33,275 bases of DNA. Source: a virus. Within the stretch, counting starts at the first letter, position 1. Every line of letters begins with the position of its first letter. The position numbers and the translations under genes are program-made. The notes under the pieces are model-generated. The model had not been told where the DNA came from. It worked only from the letters and a program-made list of their open reading frames with translations, and ran no database searches. The stretch lies in the IMG/VR virus record IMGVR_UViG_3300027038_000027. One strand, given 5' to 3'. Positions 17,843 through 27,197 of the stretch are shown here, one piece after another.

Positions 17843-18100
17843 CTATGGTTTTGCTGATGAATCGTATTCTATGGTTCCAGGATGAGAACGTTGATACATC
17901 TGAAGGTCATTCGATGCTTGCGATTCTGACATACCAAATTTGCGTATTAGGTGTTCTCGATTAATAAATCCGAACACGCGCAGTGCCTCGGCAATCCATT
18001 CCATACGATGTTTCTGATACCAATTCCCAGCAACTTTAGACATCGGGTTCAAATCCATGTTTCTTTTGCAAATCTGGAACATGCCAACATGGCTTGCCAT
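17843..18100 (-). CDS. small HTH-domain protein
   Basis: FGFINREHLIRKFGMSESQASNDLQMY is HTH-like. ATG 18043 is an alternative start lying 4 nt after the stop of the upstream primase-polymerase gene. Confidence 0.35.
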   Translation of the reverse strand: MASHVGMFQICKRNMDLNPMSKVAGNWYQKHRMEWIAEALRVFGFINREHLIRKFGMSESQASNDLQMYQRSHPGTIEYDSSAKP

Positions 18101-18794
18101 TCCTCATCCGGTATTTCCAACCCGGACAAGAACACGAACCTTTGCCTGTTTCACGATGAACTTTCGTGGTGTAGGCGTTCTTCACACCTTTGCTACTATC
18201 GTACAACTCGATAAAGAAATCTTCCGGATTCGGTTTGTCTTTCTTTGGGCGTTTCTCGTTAAAAAGAACACCATCGAGTCGTTTGTGGAGATATGCTAGC
18301 TGCTCGGAACGCTCTTCAATAGTGTTAATAGTCCCAAGCAATTTTCCGGTGACAGTGAAATAACGTCCTTCTGAGTAGATTTCTACGAAGCCAAGTTTGC
18401 GCCATCCGTCGGGAAGTTTGGCCTTCACGAGAATATGAACACCAGCTCCTGATGGACTCGCTTCAGTGTATGATGAAATCTCATCAATGATTCTTTGCGC
18501 TTCTTGTTTCTTAGCGCCAGTAATGGGATCGCGGCATTTGTCAAGATCGATGCCACAAAATCCTTCGCCGAGAACGAATCCGATTCCATGTGCATGGCCA
18601 TCACGAAATGTTGAAAGTGCTTGACTGAAATGAGCCCAAGTGGCAGGATTAGTGCTGCTGGCCATCCTCTCAGGATTTTCTGCTTGGATGGGAATCTTGG
18701 TAGGATTGTCGCCACGAGTATCGAGGCGCCAACAAACCCAACGAGGCATTTCACGTAGCTCGCGTGGGATGTTGAGTATCTCAAGATCGTTCAT
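18036..18794 (-). CDS. primase-polymerase (archaeo-eukaryotic primase family, Prim-Pol N-terminal domain) fused to a C-terminal SWIM zinc finger
   Basis: AEP motifs GIDLDKC (DxD), SPSGAGVHILV (SGxGxH) and EIYSEGRYFTVTG. The C-terminus SCSCPGWKYRMRNGKPCWHV matches the CxCx(n)CxH pattern. Confidence 0.65.
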   Translation of the reverse strand: MNDLEILNIPRELREMPRWVCWRLDTRGDNPTKIPIQAENPERMASSTNPATWAHFSQALSTFRDGHAHGIGFVLGEGFCGIDLDKCRDPITGAKKQEAQRIIDEISSYTEASPSGAGVHILVKAKLPDGWRKLGFVEIYSEGRYFTVTGKLLGTINTIEERSEQLAYLHKRLDGVLFNEKRPKKDKPNPEDFFIELYDSSKGVKNAYTTKVHRETGKGSCSCPGWKYRMRNGKPCWHVPDLQKKHGFEPDV

Positions 18795-19024
18795 TTGGTT
18801 ACTTTCTCTGGCGGAAAAACAACTCCTTCACCATACTTCCACTCCCATGCTATGGAATCACCACCATCAGTGATGATCACTCGAACAGTCGTTCCGATTC
18901 GTCCACCAACACTAGTCGCAAGTTGAACAGCCCGATGAAGCGCAGTTGCCGCAGACACGAAATGTTCCGCTTCTTCGTACTGACCATCAGGAAAGAATTG
19001 ATAGACGGAGAATTCGTTTGCCAT
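18791..19024 (-). CDS. hypothetical protein
   Basis: ORF with a stop/start overlap to the primase-polymerase gene. Confidence 0.35.
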   Translation of the reverse strand: MANEFSVYQFFPDGQYEEAEHFVSAATALHRAVQLATSVGGRIGTTVRVIITDGGDSIAWEWKYGEGVVFPPEKVTK

Positions 19025-19221
19025 TATTTGATCTTCACCCAGGAATCACCAATGAGCATCACAATTGGTTCAATTTCACCCTTTGGTGTCATTGGAACCC
19101 ACCAAGGATTGTGCATTCCATAACAAGGAGTTCCTACGAAATGCCGATCTTCTCGCTGGACAAGACATCGATGATGAGGTTCTGGCCAACCTAATTGGTC
19201 AGTAATTTTGGTGAATCTCAC
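19024..19221 (-). CDS. hypothetical protein
   Basis: Short ORF packed between neighbouring genes. Confidence 0.3.
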   Translation of the reverse strand: MRFTKITDQLGWPEPHHRCLVQREDRHFVGTPCYGMHNPWWVPMTPKGEIEPIVMLIGDSWVKIK

Positions 19222-20291
19222 AACACTTCACCAATGATATGGTCTGCCATGGGATGCCTGTATCTACCCGTATTCGTTTTCTGCTGATAGTTAATTCGGA
19301 TTTCTTTGCCAATGAATCGAGTTGATTCAGTGGCAAACACACGACGCCACTCATCGTTGAGCGTCTTGACTTGGACTTCAACACCAAATTCATCGACGCA
19401 TGAGATCTTTGAATGTGGACCTAACAGACCAGCCACAAATCCGACGATCTTACAGATAACGAATTGTTCTTTCTTGATCTTGATCCATGAACGAGAACGG
19501 TGATCTTCCTCATAGAGAGCTTTAAGATCCTTGATAATCGCTCCCTCACCACCAGCATCCCAAATCCTCTGAAGAGCTAATTCAGACACTTCGAATTGAT
19601 CGGCGAGACGAATAGCACCAGGCGAAATCAGTGACGCGCCTTCTTCGAGCAAATCTCGACGAGCGGCGGTCGTTTCACCAAGCGCAGAATTCGGACCAAC
19701 ACGAAGCATATCGAAAAGAATTAGTTCAGATTTGTGAAGAAGATCAATGGACGTAACATCGGTTGACGTGCCACCAGGAATACACAATTCTCCATCGTAG
19801 ATTCCAGGCGCAAGATGAGCAGCAACTTCACGGATATGATTACCAAGAATGCGCACATTCCCCGCCCGCGACCACGCGGTGATTTCTGCTCCTACTTCGA
19901 GGATGATACGATGTCCATCATATTTGACTTCGAGGATGTGATCAGCGTCGACGTAGTCGTCGAGAACCCATCCCTCTTTGAGACCAGATGCCAACATCGG
20001 ACGAACAGGAATTTCTGGAGAAGCACCAAGCAGGGAAGGCTGAGCAGGAGCGCCACTACCACCAACGATTTTGAGATTTGGCGTTGATGAAAAGCGACCA
20101 ACAATTGGAGGAAGAGCTATTACGCCAGGACCACCACGGACTAATTCGTCGCCAGCCGCTTTGATGTGCCAGCATTTATCGGGAGTACGAAATCCTCGAC
20201 ATGTACAGACGAGACGTCCATCATCGTGAAGAGTGACGACGTGTGGTTTTCCATTCGGATTGGATTTGGACGGGTAACTCCACGTTCTCAT
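19218..20291 (-). CDS. lig: ATP-dependent DNA ligase with N-terminal SWIM zinc finger
   Basis: Motif I EVKYDGHRI (KxDGxR), DGEL, EGAIIKD and WIKIKK (motif VI). The N-terminus LVCTCRGFRTPDKCWH matches the SWIM CxCx(n)CxH pattern. Confidence 0.7.
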   Translation of the reverse strand: MRTWSYPSKSNPNGKPHVVTLHDDGRLVCTCRGFRTPDKCWHIKAAGDELVRGGPGVIALPPIVGRFSSTPNLKIVGGSGAPAQPSLLGASPEIPVRPMLASGLKEGWVLDDYVDADHILEVKYDGHRIILEVGAEITAWSRAGNVRILGNHIREVAAHLAPGIYDGELCIPGGTSTDVTSIDLLHKSELILFDMLRVGPNSALGETTAARRDLLEEGASLISPGAIRLADQFEVSELALQRIWDAGGEGAIIKDLKALYEEDHRSRSWIKIKKEQFVICKIVGFVAGLLGPHSKISCVDEFGVEVQVKTLNDEWRRVFATESTRFIGKEIRINYQQKTNTGRYRHPMADHIIGEVL

Positions 20292-25819: not shown

Positions 25820-26181
25820 TCTTCTTCGATTTCCAATTCTTCCAGTTCTGGTTTTTCCACGTCACCAACTTCTTCAAACGACGCGTCTTCCCACACACTC
25901 ACAAATTGTTCGGCTTCCTGGCCTTTATCACTTTCTTTCCACGCGTCACTCTTGTCGTCAAATTCGTCACGAAATCGTGCGGCAACGTCGTCACAGAAGC
26001 CTTTGGCGTCTTCCAAAGCTTCTTGATATTTCTCGACGACAGCCTGGAATTCACCAATCGCGTCGTCGATTGCGACTTGGGTGATTTTCTGTTGATCCTC
26101 AATCTTGGCTAGTTCTGTCCGAAGCCGATCAATGAGCTCTGTGCGTTTCTTCTCTTCATCTTTGGTCAGTTTGAACGCCAT
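25786..26181 (-). CDS. highly acidic coiled-coil protein (DNA-mimic / anti-restriction candidate)
   Basis: AGGAGG Shine-Dalgarno sequence 5 nt upstream. Asp/Glu-rich throughout. Its 3' end overlaps the inverted nucleotidyltransferase segment. Confidence 0.45.
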   Translation of the reverse strand: MAFKLTKDEEKKRTELIDRLRTELAKIEDQQKITQVAIDDAIGEFQAVVEKYQEALEDAKGFCDDVAARFRDEFDDKSDAWKESDKGQEAEQFVSVWEDASFEEVGDVEKPELEELEIEEDHAISGASSCS

Positions 26182-26190
26182 GAAATCCTC

Positions 26191-26388
26191 CTATCGAGCG
26201 ACCTGAACTTCTAAGACGGTCAGATCGCTCTCTCTAGATGTAGTCACCAGTTTGTGTTTCGTGATAATTCGAACACCAGGTCCGTCTGCGCCAGTGATTT
26301 GAGCAATAAACTCCCCACCATACCACACTTCAATGACTCGGTCACCCTGAAGCACAGAATGGAGAGTTAATCGTAGTTTAGATTTCAT
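26191..26388 (-). CDS. small DUF1918-like protein (GDRVIEVWYGGEF)
   Basis: ATGA overlap with the Ku stop; paralogous motif to 17339..17650 and 30535..30846. Confidence 0.35.
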   Translation of the reverse strand: MKSKLRLTLHSVLQGDRVIEVWYGGEFIAQITGADGPGVRIITKHKLVTTSRESDLTVLEVQVAR

Positions 26389-27197
26389 GCAACTTTCTTC
26401 TTACCTTTCTCTTTCTTGGCCGGTTGCCGGAGCGCCAACGACGCAGTGATCGCGGCCATCAAGTCCATCGGTGGCGTTGGTACATACGGCACTCCGGATG
26501 AAATCAGCTGACCACTCTTCTTGGCGGCGACTAGTGCGTCGAACGCAATCTTGTAACGATCTTCATTGGCCACCGGATTGAAAACTCCAGCGTACATGGT
26601 TACTAGCTGATTTGCGAGTGTGAGTTGCTTTTGGTCGACCGGCGTGGTGAGACTAACAAAATGAGGCAATTCCTCGATTGCGCGCACTTCGTTGCTGGTT
26701 CGGAGTAGTTCGAGTGCGAGAATTGGGCCGAGTGGACGAACCGAAACGAGACGTTCACGACCGTAGATACTGAATCGGCCGGTCATAACCATCTCCTTGC
26801 TTCGCATTGCATCTCTCAACAATGCGAACCCAGGCGTTGGCTTGACCACAGAAAGATAATACGTCGAATCCACGTAGACTGGATCAATGCTGTCAGCTGG
26901 TACAAACGCTTCGACCAAAATCGTGTCGGTCGTTGGCGCTCGCATTCCACCGATTTCGTCTTTCGTGAGAATCACGTAGGACCCATCTTCTTGCTCGACG
27001 CCGTCGACGATGTTGGCCATTTCCACGTCAATCAGACACTTGGAGCAAATCTTTTTCTGATTGATAGGTGTCCCGCATGCGTCGTGGAGCCATCTCTTGT
27101 GAGTTCCCTTTGCTGCGTCGTCTGTTGCTTTGTAGAGCGCCACAGGCACATGAACCAGACCAACCGACAAATTGCCCTTCCAAACACTTCTTGCCAT
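26385..27197 (-). CDS. ku: Ku protein (NHEJ DNA-end-binding)
   Basis: MARSVWKGNLSVGLVHVPVALYKAT is the canonical bacterial Ku N-terminus. The sequence is collinear with Ku throughout, e.g. EAFVPADSIDPVYVDSTYYL. ATG 27197 has an AAGGAG Shine-Dalgarno sequence 7 nt upstream; the listed ORF starts at GTG 27215. Confidence 0.8.
   Translation of the reverse strand: MARSVWKGNLSVGLVHVPVALYKATDDAAKGTHKRWLHDACGTPINQKKICSKCLIDVEMANIVDGVEQEDGSYVILTKDEIGGMRAPTTDTILVEAFVPADSIDPVYVDSTYYLSVVKPTPGFALLRDAMRSKEMVMTGRFSIYGRERLVSVRPLGPILALELLRTSNEVRAIEELPHFVSLTTPVDQKQLTLANQLVTMYAGVFNPVANEDRYKIAFDALVAAKKSGQLISSGVPYVPTPPMDLMAAITASLALRQPAKKEKGKKKVA

Follow-up and report, generated by a model that had tools for sequence, protein, structure and literature searches.

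The 33-kb window (the whole stretch of DNA analysed, a contig representing a genome fragment) encodes a Ku protein, an ATP-dependent DNA ligase and an AEP primase-polymerase of 252 aa, and both enzymes carry a finger of one and the same SWIM subtype, tethered to a predicted minimal catalytic core. As a whole, these observations are best explained, though only tentatively, by a portable SWIM targeting module, with Ku and the SWIM-ligase acting in end joining and the SWIM-AEP in DNA synthesis. The three proteins are encoded by separate genes, all on the minus strand, at the positions given by a first-pass annotation of this DNA.

Table. Positions of the genes, domains and promoter-like sites in the window.
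Feature	Coordinates	Strand	Details
AEP gene	18036..18794	-	252 aa
AEP catalytic domain, NrS-1 family	18258..18794	-	aa 1-179; D83, D85, SPS 113-115, H120, Y145
AEP C-terminal SWIM finger	18060..18218	-	aa 193-245; C221-x-C223-x12-C236-x-H238
orf77	18791..19024	-	function unassigned; overlaps both neighbouring genes (TAATG, ATGA)
orf65	19024..19221	-	function unassigned; GTG start overlaps ligase stop (GTGA)
Ligase gene	19218..20291	-	SWIM finger, linker and two-domain core
Ligase catalytic core	19221..20012	-	nucleotidyltransferase aa 94-273, OB aa 276-357
Ligase linker, disordered	20031..20126	-	aa 56-87; pLDDT <50
Ligase N-terminal SWIM finger	20127..20291	-	aa 1-55; C29-x-C31-x8-C40-x-H42
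Promoter-like TTTACA-N17-TATACT	20299..20327	-	consensus scan
Ku, bacterial type	26385..27197	-	270 aa from ATG 27197; Lys-rich C-terminal tail
Ku, alternative start GTG 27215	26385..27215	-	276 aa
Weak sigma-70-like TTTACT-N17-TACAAT	27231..27259	-	directly upstream of Ku; consensus scan only

Ku matched PF02735 (E 2e-33) and TIGR02772 Ku_bact (204 bits, cutoff 150), which identify it as a genuine Ku of the bacterial type; in the public gene call, P0188, its length is 270 aa. Ku was present in 87 of 50,697 records of cultured phages (roughly 0.2%), 86 of which are mycobacteriophages, in line with the earlier remark that phage Ku is known from a few mycobacteriophages. The ligase matched PF01068 (E 1.4e-15). 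In an alignment of 32 family members its catalytic K123 (in KxDG) and nucleotidyltransferase motifs III-V were invariant (K123, D166, E168, F193, D194, E249, K254 and K271). The core, modelled with pLDDT >90, matched Lig E, LigD-LIG and the T4 and Chlorella virus ligases in Foldseek. Judged from sequence and fold, this is a complete two-domain ATP-dependent ligase with a generic minimal core. A LigD-specific identity was rejected: the score with NHEJ_ligase_lig was 54.5 bits (cutoff 227.75), and by fold the ligase groups with generic minimal ligases. The linker between finger and core varies in sequence and length over the family, its alignment columns being gappy and poorly conserved.

The 252-aa protein was not matched by PF09250, the Prim-Pol profile proposed for it, or by the other Pfam AEP models. 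It matched instead the NrS-1 primase-polymerase in the PDB, both by sequence (E 1e-22) and by fold (Foldseek, E 3e-15), as well as PHROG primase families (E 1e-47). The catalytic Asp and His residues are retained; the DxD motif (D83, D85), the SPS loop (S113-P114-S115) and H120 were conserved in the homologue alignment. The protein thus has an intact AEP catalytic core of the NrS-1 replicative-type family, and the LigD polymerase clade was ruled out by its matches to the PrimPol/NrS-1 clade. No match to the phosphoesterase or polymerase domain of LigD was obtained with the ligase or the AEP protein, nor did the Pfam and PHROG matches of the other ORFs scanned point to one. In 353 cultured phages, annotated replicative primase/helicases have an N-terminal domain matched by residues 8-175, relatives that make a replication role equally natural and so count against the explanation we favour. 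A SWIM finger in place of the helix-bundle/helicase part was found in only 7 of the best 120 homologues. The stretch between core and finger (~aa 171-192) is basic and was modelled with lower confidence.

Both fingers match SWIM, as had been proposed, but with the spacings CxCx8CxH (ligase) and CxCx12CxH (AEP) rather than x9 and x14. With PF04434 the AEP finger scored 23.4 bits, over the threshold of 19.6, whereas the ligase finger (14.7 bits) fell below it; this model detects only 4 of the 32 ligase-family copies. Comparison of the ligase-SWIM and AEP-SWIM profiles with hhalign, however, gave a probability of 98.2% (E 3e-14). C29, C31, G33, C40 and H42 of the ligase finger were invariant in the 32-sequence alignment, the motif was present in 54/66 ligase homologues, and the AEP finger is conserved in P0002-P0007. 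The models show the same beta-beta-beta-alpha module in the ligase (strands 2-6, 17-21 and 27-29, helix 41-52; pLDDT 79-91) and in the AEP (strands 193-198, 208-213 and 219-221, helix 238-245). On this evidence the two fingers are homologous modules of one SWIM subtype, and both presumably bind zinc. They are confined to exactly these two enzymes, since a family-specific HMM found no further SWIM ORF across the window.

The subtype has an extra conserved N-terminal strand motif, S-x-S...Y/H-T, and a loop with a charge of +0.21 per residue, compared with about 0 elsewhere. It occurs in 3,878 protein clusters, mostly as standalone small proteins or in tandem arrays (up to 8 copies), and is additionally fused to a PD-(D/E)XK/Cas4 nuclease; in related loci, standalone SWIM ORFs are scattered throughout. 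The basic loop and the widespread, mostly standalone or tandem occurrence therefore favour DNA targeting by a portable module, which would bind DNA, over Ku docking. The first-pass annotation had called the gene set unusual, and indeed the SWIM-ligase architecture was absent from all 50,697 phage records. SWIM fused to a ligase, AEP or PD-(D/E)XK nuclease was not found described in the literature searched.

The ligase, orf65, orf77 and AEP genes, whose stop and start codons overlap in series, are translationally coupled. Neither orf65 nor orf77 was conserved in the related loci examined. The run lies downstream of a repeated promoter-like motif: three sites with the identical hexamers TTTACA/TATACT were found in the window compared with 0.06 expected, a number reached in 0/100 shuffles. 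The ligase mRNA may be leaderless, because the -10 box ends 7 nt before the ATG. Ku is placed ~6 kb away from the ligase and follows other promoter-like sites.

Among 20 ligase elements sampled without reference to Ku (a small contig sample, uncorrected for kinship), Ku was found within 10 kb of the SWIM-ligase in three: the window, L016 (genes ~0.7 kb apart) and L031 (9.5 kb). The other 17/20 had no Ku within this distance, which speaks against the favoured explanation, as does the fact that SWIM domains elsewhere (MEKK1, Sws1/Shu2) mediate protein contacts. In L024, which has the closest Ku relative, the distance from Ku to a SWIM-ligase is 1.8 kb. SWIM is present in all four ligases linked to Ku (window, L016, L024, L031), and Ku was absent from all of the roughly 7 ligase loci without SWIM, counts too small for significance. 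A SWIM-bearing AEP was found within 2.2 kb of a family ligase in 4/5 lineages (window, L007, L036 and L027). The ligases of L007 and L036 are without SWIM, and in L027 the AEP is a Prim-Pol of the unrelated PF09250 family, whose SWIM is N-terminal and whose gene lies ~900 bp from that of a SWIM-ligase. No SWIM-AEP locus outside the window had Ku within the DNA available, most SWIM-ligase loci had none nearby, and no locus other than the window showed the complete trio. The linkage is thus real but pairwise, Ku with ligase and AEP with ligase.

Under our preferred explanation, the window would belong to an early operon for DNA metabolism in a tailed, uncultured phage of sediment or groundwater. 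Two stripped-down cores would each be flexibly linked to a portable, zinc-stabilised, basic DNA-binding module supplying the substrate targeting (to DNA ends, nicks or ssDNA) that minimal enzymes lack. In the ligase SWIM would do the work of the DNA-binding domain that larger ligases have, and in the AEP that of the helix-bundle and helicase domains. Priming by human PrimPol depends on its C-terminal zinc finger, which is tethered and binds ssDNA (PMC7102993, PMC8718748), and in the NrS-1 enzyme an HBD-inactivating mutation impaired priming and enhanced polymerase activity (PMC8718748). Ku and the SWIM-ligase could form a phage-autonomous two-component end-joining system, with which the phage would close its injected genome into a circle or mend double-strand breaks left by host nucleases; Cas12a and EcoRI cuts are repairable by a phage ligase alone (bioRxiv 10.64898/2026.09.21.753257). 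The SWIM-AEP would fill gaps or prime on ssDNA, and the coupled ligase would seal the products. Such a putative modular DNA-joining kit, its finger probably directed to DNA, was not found in the cultured phages.

A rather less probable explanation is that the genes form a replication module and adjoin only as early DNA-metabolism genes. The SWIM-AEP would then be the replication-initiating primase, with SWIM replacing the helix-bundle or zinc finger as the module binding the template or initiating nucleotide. The ligase would seal Okazaki-type nicks, and Ku would act separately, like Mu Gam, keeping host exonucleases off linear ends or assisting in circularisation. The NrS-1 family membership and replicative relatives of the AEP fit this reading, as do the need of PrimPol-type priming for a tethered accessory module, the distance and separate promoter-like sites of Ku, and profile searches that found no other primase in the window. 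However, neither the window nor the immediate surroundings of the SWIM-AEPs in L007, L027, L034 and L036 yielded a helicase or DNA polymerase. What is conserved beside the AEP is a ligase and not a helicase, the same SWIM was gained by two unrelated AEP families next to the same ligase family, and the Ku-ligase pairing recurs well over the background Ku frequency in phages.

The first-pass annotation had suggested a common docking or recognition mechanism for the shared finger, directed at Ku, DNA ends or the other enzyme. In the docking model, the fingers would recruit the two enzymes to Ku, or to one another, and so replace the contact that Ku makes with the polymerase domain of LigD in bacterial NHEJ. 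A common mechanism gains from the L027 fusion; the docking itself we consider improbable. The single subtype on both enzymes, a flexible tether typical of recruitment modules, the few Ku-linked ligases all carrying SWIM and the protein contacts of Sws1/Shu2 and MEKK1 are consistent with it. Docking to Ku is nevertheless unlikely because the 3,878 clusters are mostly standalone or tandem and, within the DNA available, Ku accompanies only a minority of the SWIM-ligase loci and no SWIM-AEP locus but that of the window; binding of nucleic acid accounts better for the basic loop and the tandem arrays. We give equally little credence to a mosaic coincidence, in which SWIM is a very mobile phage domain and its double occurrence near Ku has no functional meaning. 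The promiscuity of the subtype, the scattered standalone ORFs, the uniqueness of the trio and the SWIM-less ligases of L007 and L036 agree with chance. Against it stand the independent fusion to a second AEP family in L027, the retention of the finger with invariant ligands in most ligase homologues, the translational coupling of ligase and AEP, and the enrichment of Ku near the ligase over its background in phage records.

Like bacterial NHEJ (Ku and LigD POL-PE-LIG; Mycobacterium, Pseudomonas), the window has a homodimer-type Ku, an ATP-dependent ligase core, which Foldseek aligned to LIG of LigD (1vs0; E about 4e-15), and an AEP-superfamily polymerase. The description of the locus as a split LigD stands for the activities, carried by separate genes, but not for the parts: the AEP is of the PrimPol/NrS-1 rather than the LigD-POL clade, the ligase is generic, with NCBIfam NHEJ ligase models far below cutoffs, no phosphoesterase domain was found in the ORFs scanned, and SWIM fingers are foreign to LigD. 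The Ku of mycobacteriophages (Omega and Corndog type; LittleE gp204) is bacterial-type like that of the window, with about 31% identity. Reportedly (Pitcher et al. 2006), this Ku serves to circularise the genome in conjunction with short cohesive ends, and Omega and Corndog rely on host LigD. In LittleE, the one mycobacteriophage inspected, no annotated ligase or primase lies within 8 kb of Ku, whereas Ku in the window, L016, L024 and L031 is accompanied by a phage SWIM-ligase. The minimal ligases (Lig E, Chlorella virus, T7) share the NTase and OB core, Lig E (6gdr) being closest in fold, but Lig E and the Chlorella virus ligase have no appended finger. DNA ligase III, like the window ligase, has an N-terminal zinc module appended to its core, although that finger is PARP-like.

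The phage NrS-1 primase-polymerase (gp28; PDB 6a9w, 7rr3) shares with the window AEP its catalytic fold, DxD, SPS loop, His and Tyr, at 31-33% identity. In the NrS-1 enzyme helix-bundle and hexameric helicase domains come after it (PMC7102993), whereas the window core stops after ~180 aa and is followed by the finger. Human PrimPol has an analogous layout of AEP core, flexible linker and C-terminal zinc finger; the likeness is one of architecture, its finger being UL52-like. With the SWIM family (PF04434; MuDR transposases, SNF2 ATPases, MEKK1, Sws1/Shu2) the phage fingers share the CxCxnCxH signature and the predicted beta-beta-beta-alpha module, and the AEP copy passes the Pfam threshold, but they represent a divergent phage subtype.

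The window is nearly the whole of a 33,926-bp contig from a sediment/groundwater metagenome (ENA ERZ936689, PRJEB22302). The identical AEP protein was found on shorter contigs from several other samples, with the same flanking genes on most of them. The genes of the left half of the window specify large proteins in which TIG, PKD and podophage gp80-fibre domains were recognized, and the right half carries a long series of genes, small for the most part. This is the layout of a tailed phage, in which the structural and early modules converge. No tRNAs were found in the window, and a megablast search with 14 kb of it against cultured phages gave no nucleotide match. 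The three open reading frames that the first-pass annotation had assigned to Ku, an ATP-dependent ligase and a primase-polymerase (AEP) are all present at the positions it gave.

Positions of features in the window and in related loci
Feature	Locus	Coordinates	Strand	Remarks
Structural half	window	17..15075	+	
Early half	window	~15.4-33 kb	-	
CxxC-rich, zinc-ribbon-like small ORF	window	16798-17091	-	
DUF6166 protein	window	17502-17834	-	E 8e-22
Small winged-helix protein	window	17843-18100	-	
AEP	window	18036..18794	-	252 aa
Ligase	window	19218..20291	-	357 aa
Promoter-like TTTACA-N17-TATACT	window	20299-20327	-	
CxxC-rich, zinc-ribbon-like small ORF	window	20701-21045	-	
CxxC-rich, zinc-ribbon-like small ORF	window	21451-21702	-	
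CxxC-rich, zinc-ribbon-like small ORF	window	21699-21944	-	
Promoter-like TTTACA-N17-TATACT	window	21952-21980	-	
DUF932 protein	window	23938-24951	-	E 1e-45
Promoter-like TTTACA-N17-TATACT	window	25023-25051	-	
Split RlaP / Pol-beta-type nucleotidyltransferase	window	25085-25819	both	
RlaP C-terminal half	window	25085..25513	-	profile 120-245
RlaP N-terminal half	window	25433..25819	+	profile 25-97
Ku	window	26385..27197	-	
MVP-like protein	window	27381-29858	-	825 aa
WGR-domain protein	L029	5106-5363		
WGR-domain protein	L030	666-923		
WGR-domain protein	L031	7081-7311		
Type IB topoisomerase (PF01028)	L034	687-1466	-	
SprT-like protease	L034	8034-8531	-	

Even without the two SWIM fingers described below, the early region has an unusually high density of putative zinc-binding proteins. 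The winged-helix and DUF6166 genes follow the AEP gene immediately on its downstream side, with overlap; a precomputed Pfam match to WHD_BrxR exists for the former on a 66-aa public gene call. Immediately upstream of Ku is a homologue of the major vault protein (MVP), with the MVP shoulder domain (E 3.7e-26) and Vault_3 and SPFH/Band7 domains, whose residues 443-755 match vault proteins in the PDB (E 4e-13). Such a protein is unusual in a phage contig, and it was not found in the related loci. The RlaP-type gene is split into two half-ORFs that overlap by 81 nt and could reflect an intragenic inversion, a pair of convergent half-genes or an artefact of assembly; a simple inversion bounded by inverted repeats was not supported, as no clean flanking inverted repeat was seen.

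The Ku assignment was borne out by PF02735, which matched at E 2e-33 over profile positions 2-189 of 190, i.e. the full-length beta-barrel core domain. The protein also scored 204.1 bits against TIGR02772 (NCBIfam Ku_bact, the equivalog model for bacterial NHEJ Ku; cutoff 150). Among 50,697 cultured phage records, Ku was detected in 87, 86 of which are mycobacteriophages, and a single-sequence Ku scan of viral contigs gave no matches. The closest Ku relative (58% identity) is encoded in the related locus L024, where a SWIM-ligase lies 1.8 kb away.

The adenylation domain of ATP-dependent ligases was likewise recognized in the proposed ligase (E 1.4e-15). Across an alignment of 32 family members, K123 of motif I (KxDG) and motifs III-V (III, IIIa, IV and V) are invariant, with D166/E168, F193/D194, E249/K254 and K271/K273 invariant or nearly so. 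Residues 276-357 were modelled as a beta-barrel OB domain with pLDDT > 90. Foldseek matched the full core to ligases; the closest folds are minimal ligases, e.g. Lig E, and LigD-LIG, T4 and Chlorella virus ligases score about equally. By comparison with LigD, however, the protein falls short of the equivalog level, with 54.5 bits for TIGR02779 (cutoff 227.75) and 43.8 bits for TIGR02776 (cutoff 373.2), and consists of SWIM, NTase and OB alone, lacking the fused POL (AEP) and phosphoesterase domains. The window ORFs that were scanned gave no phosphoesterase-type match. Searching the 50,697 phage records with the ligase by tblastn gave no match at E 1e-8, and at E 1e-2 only core-domain matches, all lacking the N-terminus.

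The AEP matched PHROG primase families (E 1e-47) and the structures of the NrS-1 primase-polymerase, both in sequence (E 1e-22) and in predicted fold (Foldseek E 3e-15, 31-33% identity). The proposed membership of PF09250 was rejected, since neither Pfam nor NCBIfam gave any AEP model for the 252-aa protein. Its AEP character itself stands, because the catalytic Asp/His residues, whose loss would have spoken against it, are retained: D83/D85, S113-P114-S115, H120 and Y145 align with D78/D80, S108-P109-S110, H115 and Y146 of NrS-1, where the SPS loop and Y146 are critical for activity (PMC8718748). Unlike the NrS-1 enzyme, the window protein lacks the helix-bundle domain (HBD, PF22763), in whose place it has the SWIM finger, and the C-terminal hexameric helicase; none of the scanned window ORFs was recognized as a helicase. 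Its homologues bear the name "phage NrS-1 polymerase family" and usually have PF22763 after the core or are bare cores of ~164 aa, with SWIM in only 7 of the best 120. No LigD-Pol chain was present among PDB sequence matches up to E 10 or among the best 50 Foldseek matches.

Both enzymes carry a CxCxnCxH finger, with spacings differing from the x9 and x14 originally reported: C29-x-C31-x8-C40-x-H42 at the N-terminus of the ligase and C221-x-C223-x12-C236-x-H238 at the C-terminus of the AEP, each conserved in homologues. At the Pfam SWIM threshold (PF04434, 19.6 bits) the AEP finger was recognized (23.4 bits), whereas the ligase finger was not (14.7 bits). As only 4 of 32 ligase homologues reached even E 0.01, the ligase finger represents a divergent SWIM subtype. 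The N-terminal motif occurs in 54 of 66 ligase homologues, with C29, C31, G33, C40 and H42 invariant. Profiles built separately from ligase and AEP fingers matched each other in hhalign with 98.2% probability (E 3e-14), and the match took in a common N-terminal S-x-S...Y/H-T strand motif. In AlphaFold models of the two proteins (mean pLDDT 88.9 for the ligase and 90.0 for the AEP) the fingers are predicted alike, with three strands, a short helix and a longer helix round the ligands (pLDDT ~80-94). A family-specific SWIM HMM found no further copy in the window. The ligase model comprises SWIM (aa 1-55), a 32-residue segment with pLDDT < 50, where the family alignment likewise varies most, and the NTase-OB core (aa 94-357); in the AEP, a basic, lower-confidence linker (~aa 171-192) joins core and SWIM. 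Because such linkers separate them from the catalytic cores, both fingers are, in the models, tethered modules not integral to the catalytic folds.

A profile of this SWIM subtype matched 3,878 representative proteins among 1.84 billion (E <= 1e-3). The best 150 of these comprised ~37 ligases, one AEP-SWIM protein, 71 standalone proteins (<= 130 aa) and 41 larger ones, often with 2-8 tandem fingers; they included single cases of fusion to a PD-(D/E)XK/Cas4 nuclease and a few other domains. Some proteins are made up of such arrays: five profile-matched copies each were present in P0308 (646 aa) and P0309 (693 aa), and P0331 (495 aa) has up to eight CxC...CxH motifs. Dozens of standalone proteins of 50-130 aa belong to the subtype as well, which makes it a large uncharacterised family, and standalone SWIM ORFs also occur in six related loci (L007, L010, L013, L024, L034 and L036). 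The loop from CxC to CxH bears +0.21 charge per residue, compared with ~0 in the rest of the same proteins.

The ligase and AEP genes and the two small genes between them, orf65 and orf77, overlap through their stop and start codons (GTGA, TAATG, ATGA); no conservation of orf65 and orf77 was seen in related loci. The promoter-like sequence occurs three times on the minus strand of the window (0.06 expected by chance), and at two sites the -10 box ends 7 nt ahead of an ATG (the ligase at 20291 and an ORF at 21944), a distance that suggests leaderless transcripts. Ku lies ~6 kb upstream of the ligase and has its own, weaker promoter-like site. Of 20 elements that carry the ligase family and were retrieved regardless of Ku, the Ku gene lies no more than 10 kb from the ligase in three, namely the window, L016 (~0.7 kb apart) and L031 (9.5 kb), to be compared with the 87 of 50,697 cultured phage records that have Ku at all. 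A SWIM-bearing AEP lies within 2.2 kb of a family ligase in four of five lineages (the window, L007, L036 and L027); the ligases of L007 and L036 lack SWIM. No ligase was found in the 9 kb of L034, and a scan of the L016 neighbours found no AEP as a third component. In these small samples the whole trio was seen in the window only.

Other genes recur in these neighbourhoods. The DUF932 protein, also present in L012, L029/L030 and L032, shows 55-59% identity across four ligase-bearing elements, above the ligase's own conservation, and is therefore a recurrent unexplained neighbour. Three related loci encode, a few kb upstream of their SWIM-ligase, small proteins with a WGR domain (PF05406), the DNA-break-sensing domain of PARPs. 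L034, which holds an AEP-SWIM relative, encodes a topoisomerase and a protease. A DUF6011 protein is a recurrent neighbour of AEP-SWIM or ligase genes, seen in L007, L031 and L034-L037.

We favour a model in which SWIM would act as a portable finger for DNA targeting, Ku and the SWIM-ligase would work as a phage-autonomous pair that joins ends, whether to circularise the genome or to repair breaks, and the coupled SWIM-AEP would make the DNA that the ligase then seals; as a whole we hold it tentatively, at a little under an even chance. The first-pass annotation had instead proposed that SWIM docks both enzymes to Ku or to each other. The presence of the finger on both enzymes is compatible with this, but the tandem arrays, the basic loops, the frequent absence of Ku and the fusions to DNA enzymes agree better with a module that binds nucleic acids than with an adaptor dedicated to Ku, and we consider docking improbable. 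It is about equally improbable that SWIM is merely mobile and the grouping a mosaic coincidence. Against coincidence stands L027, whose SWIM-bearing ligase is the closest relative of the window ligase (57% identity): ~900 bp away is a 247-aa protein with a PF09250 AEP domain (E 2e-27) and an N-terminal SWIM. Since two unrelated AEPs have thus gained this finger next to ligases of one family, the sequences argue for selection rather than accident.

The main rival, which we regard as unlikely but weightier than either of these, is that the AEP is the primase that initiates replication, SWIM taking the place of the helix-bundle domain, that nicks left by replication are sealed by the ligase, and that Ku acts apart, like Mu Gam. 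In 353 cultured-phage records, AEP residues 8-175 found a match in the N-terminal domain of replicative primase/helicases; one of these proteins, from Acinetobacter phage Loki, was rejected as a full-length AEP-SWIM match, being a 754-aa primase-helicase. Priming by human PrimPol depends on an ssDNA-binding zinc finger tethered at its C-terminus (PMC7102993; discussed in PMC8718748), a close analogy to the tethered C-terminal finger of the SWIM-AEP. By analogy with NrS-1, the core without HBD would be a polymerase by default, because an HBD-inactivating mutation impairs priming and raises polymerase processivity and strand displacement (PMC8718748). A broader version of our favoured model appears doubtful: in it, a distinct, very widespread phage SWIM subtype, portable and directed at DNA ends or ssDNA, has been used repeatedly and independently to build from Ku, SWIM-ligase and SWIM-primase-polymerase a modular, host-independent end-joining machine, which would converge on LigD activities with non-LigD parts and would serve genome circularisation and the repair of restriction or CRISPR cuts. 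The repair role has a precedent, since a phage ligase alone repairs Cas12a and EcoRI cuts (bioRxiv 10.64898/2026.09.21.753257).

Within the limited sensitivity of the searches, no SWIM-ligase or SWIM-AEP was found in the 50,697 cultured phage records or, with strict patterns, across GTDB, and literature searches gave nothing relevant on SWIM with ligase or primase in phages. A GTDB scan for SWIM-ligase prophages gave one match, in a Syntrophaceae MAG; it was SWIM-only and therefore offers no host clue. All components belong to superfamilies already described, and the function proposed for them is not of a new kind either. As to the proposed "split LigD", the separate genes are present, but the AEP is not of LigD type and the ligase not specifically so. 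Because the AEP has no LigD polymerase domain among its sequence or fold neighbours and the ligase scores far below the cutoffs of the NHEJ models, the term is a functional analogy at most and not an evolutionary description. The exchange of helix-bundle for SWIM on a primase-polymerase core bears on the switch between priming and polymerisation in AEPs, and the favoured model, if true, would give a testable function to the SWIM subtype, whose 3,878 protein clusters are mostly uncharacterised small phage proteins. If Ku and SWIM-ligase, with or without SWIM-AEP, are self-sufficient, they would constitute a compact NHEJ system of three genes, assembled without any relative of LigD and of possible use for genome engineering in NHEJ-free hosts, and a candidate phage counter-defence by repair of nuclease cuts, comparable to the ligase-dependent repair reported for PhiKMV phages.
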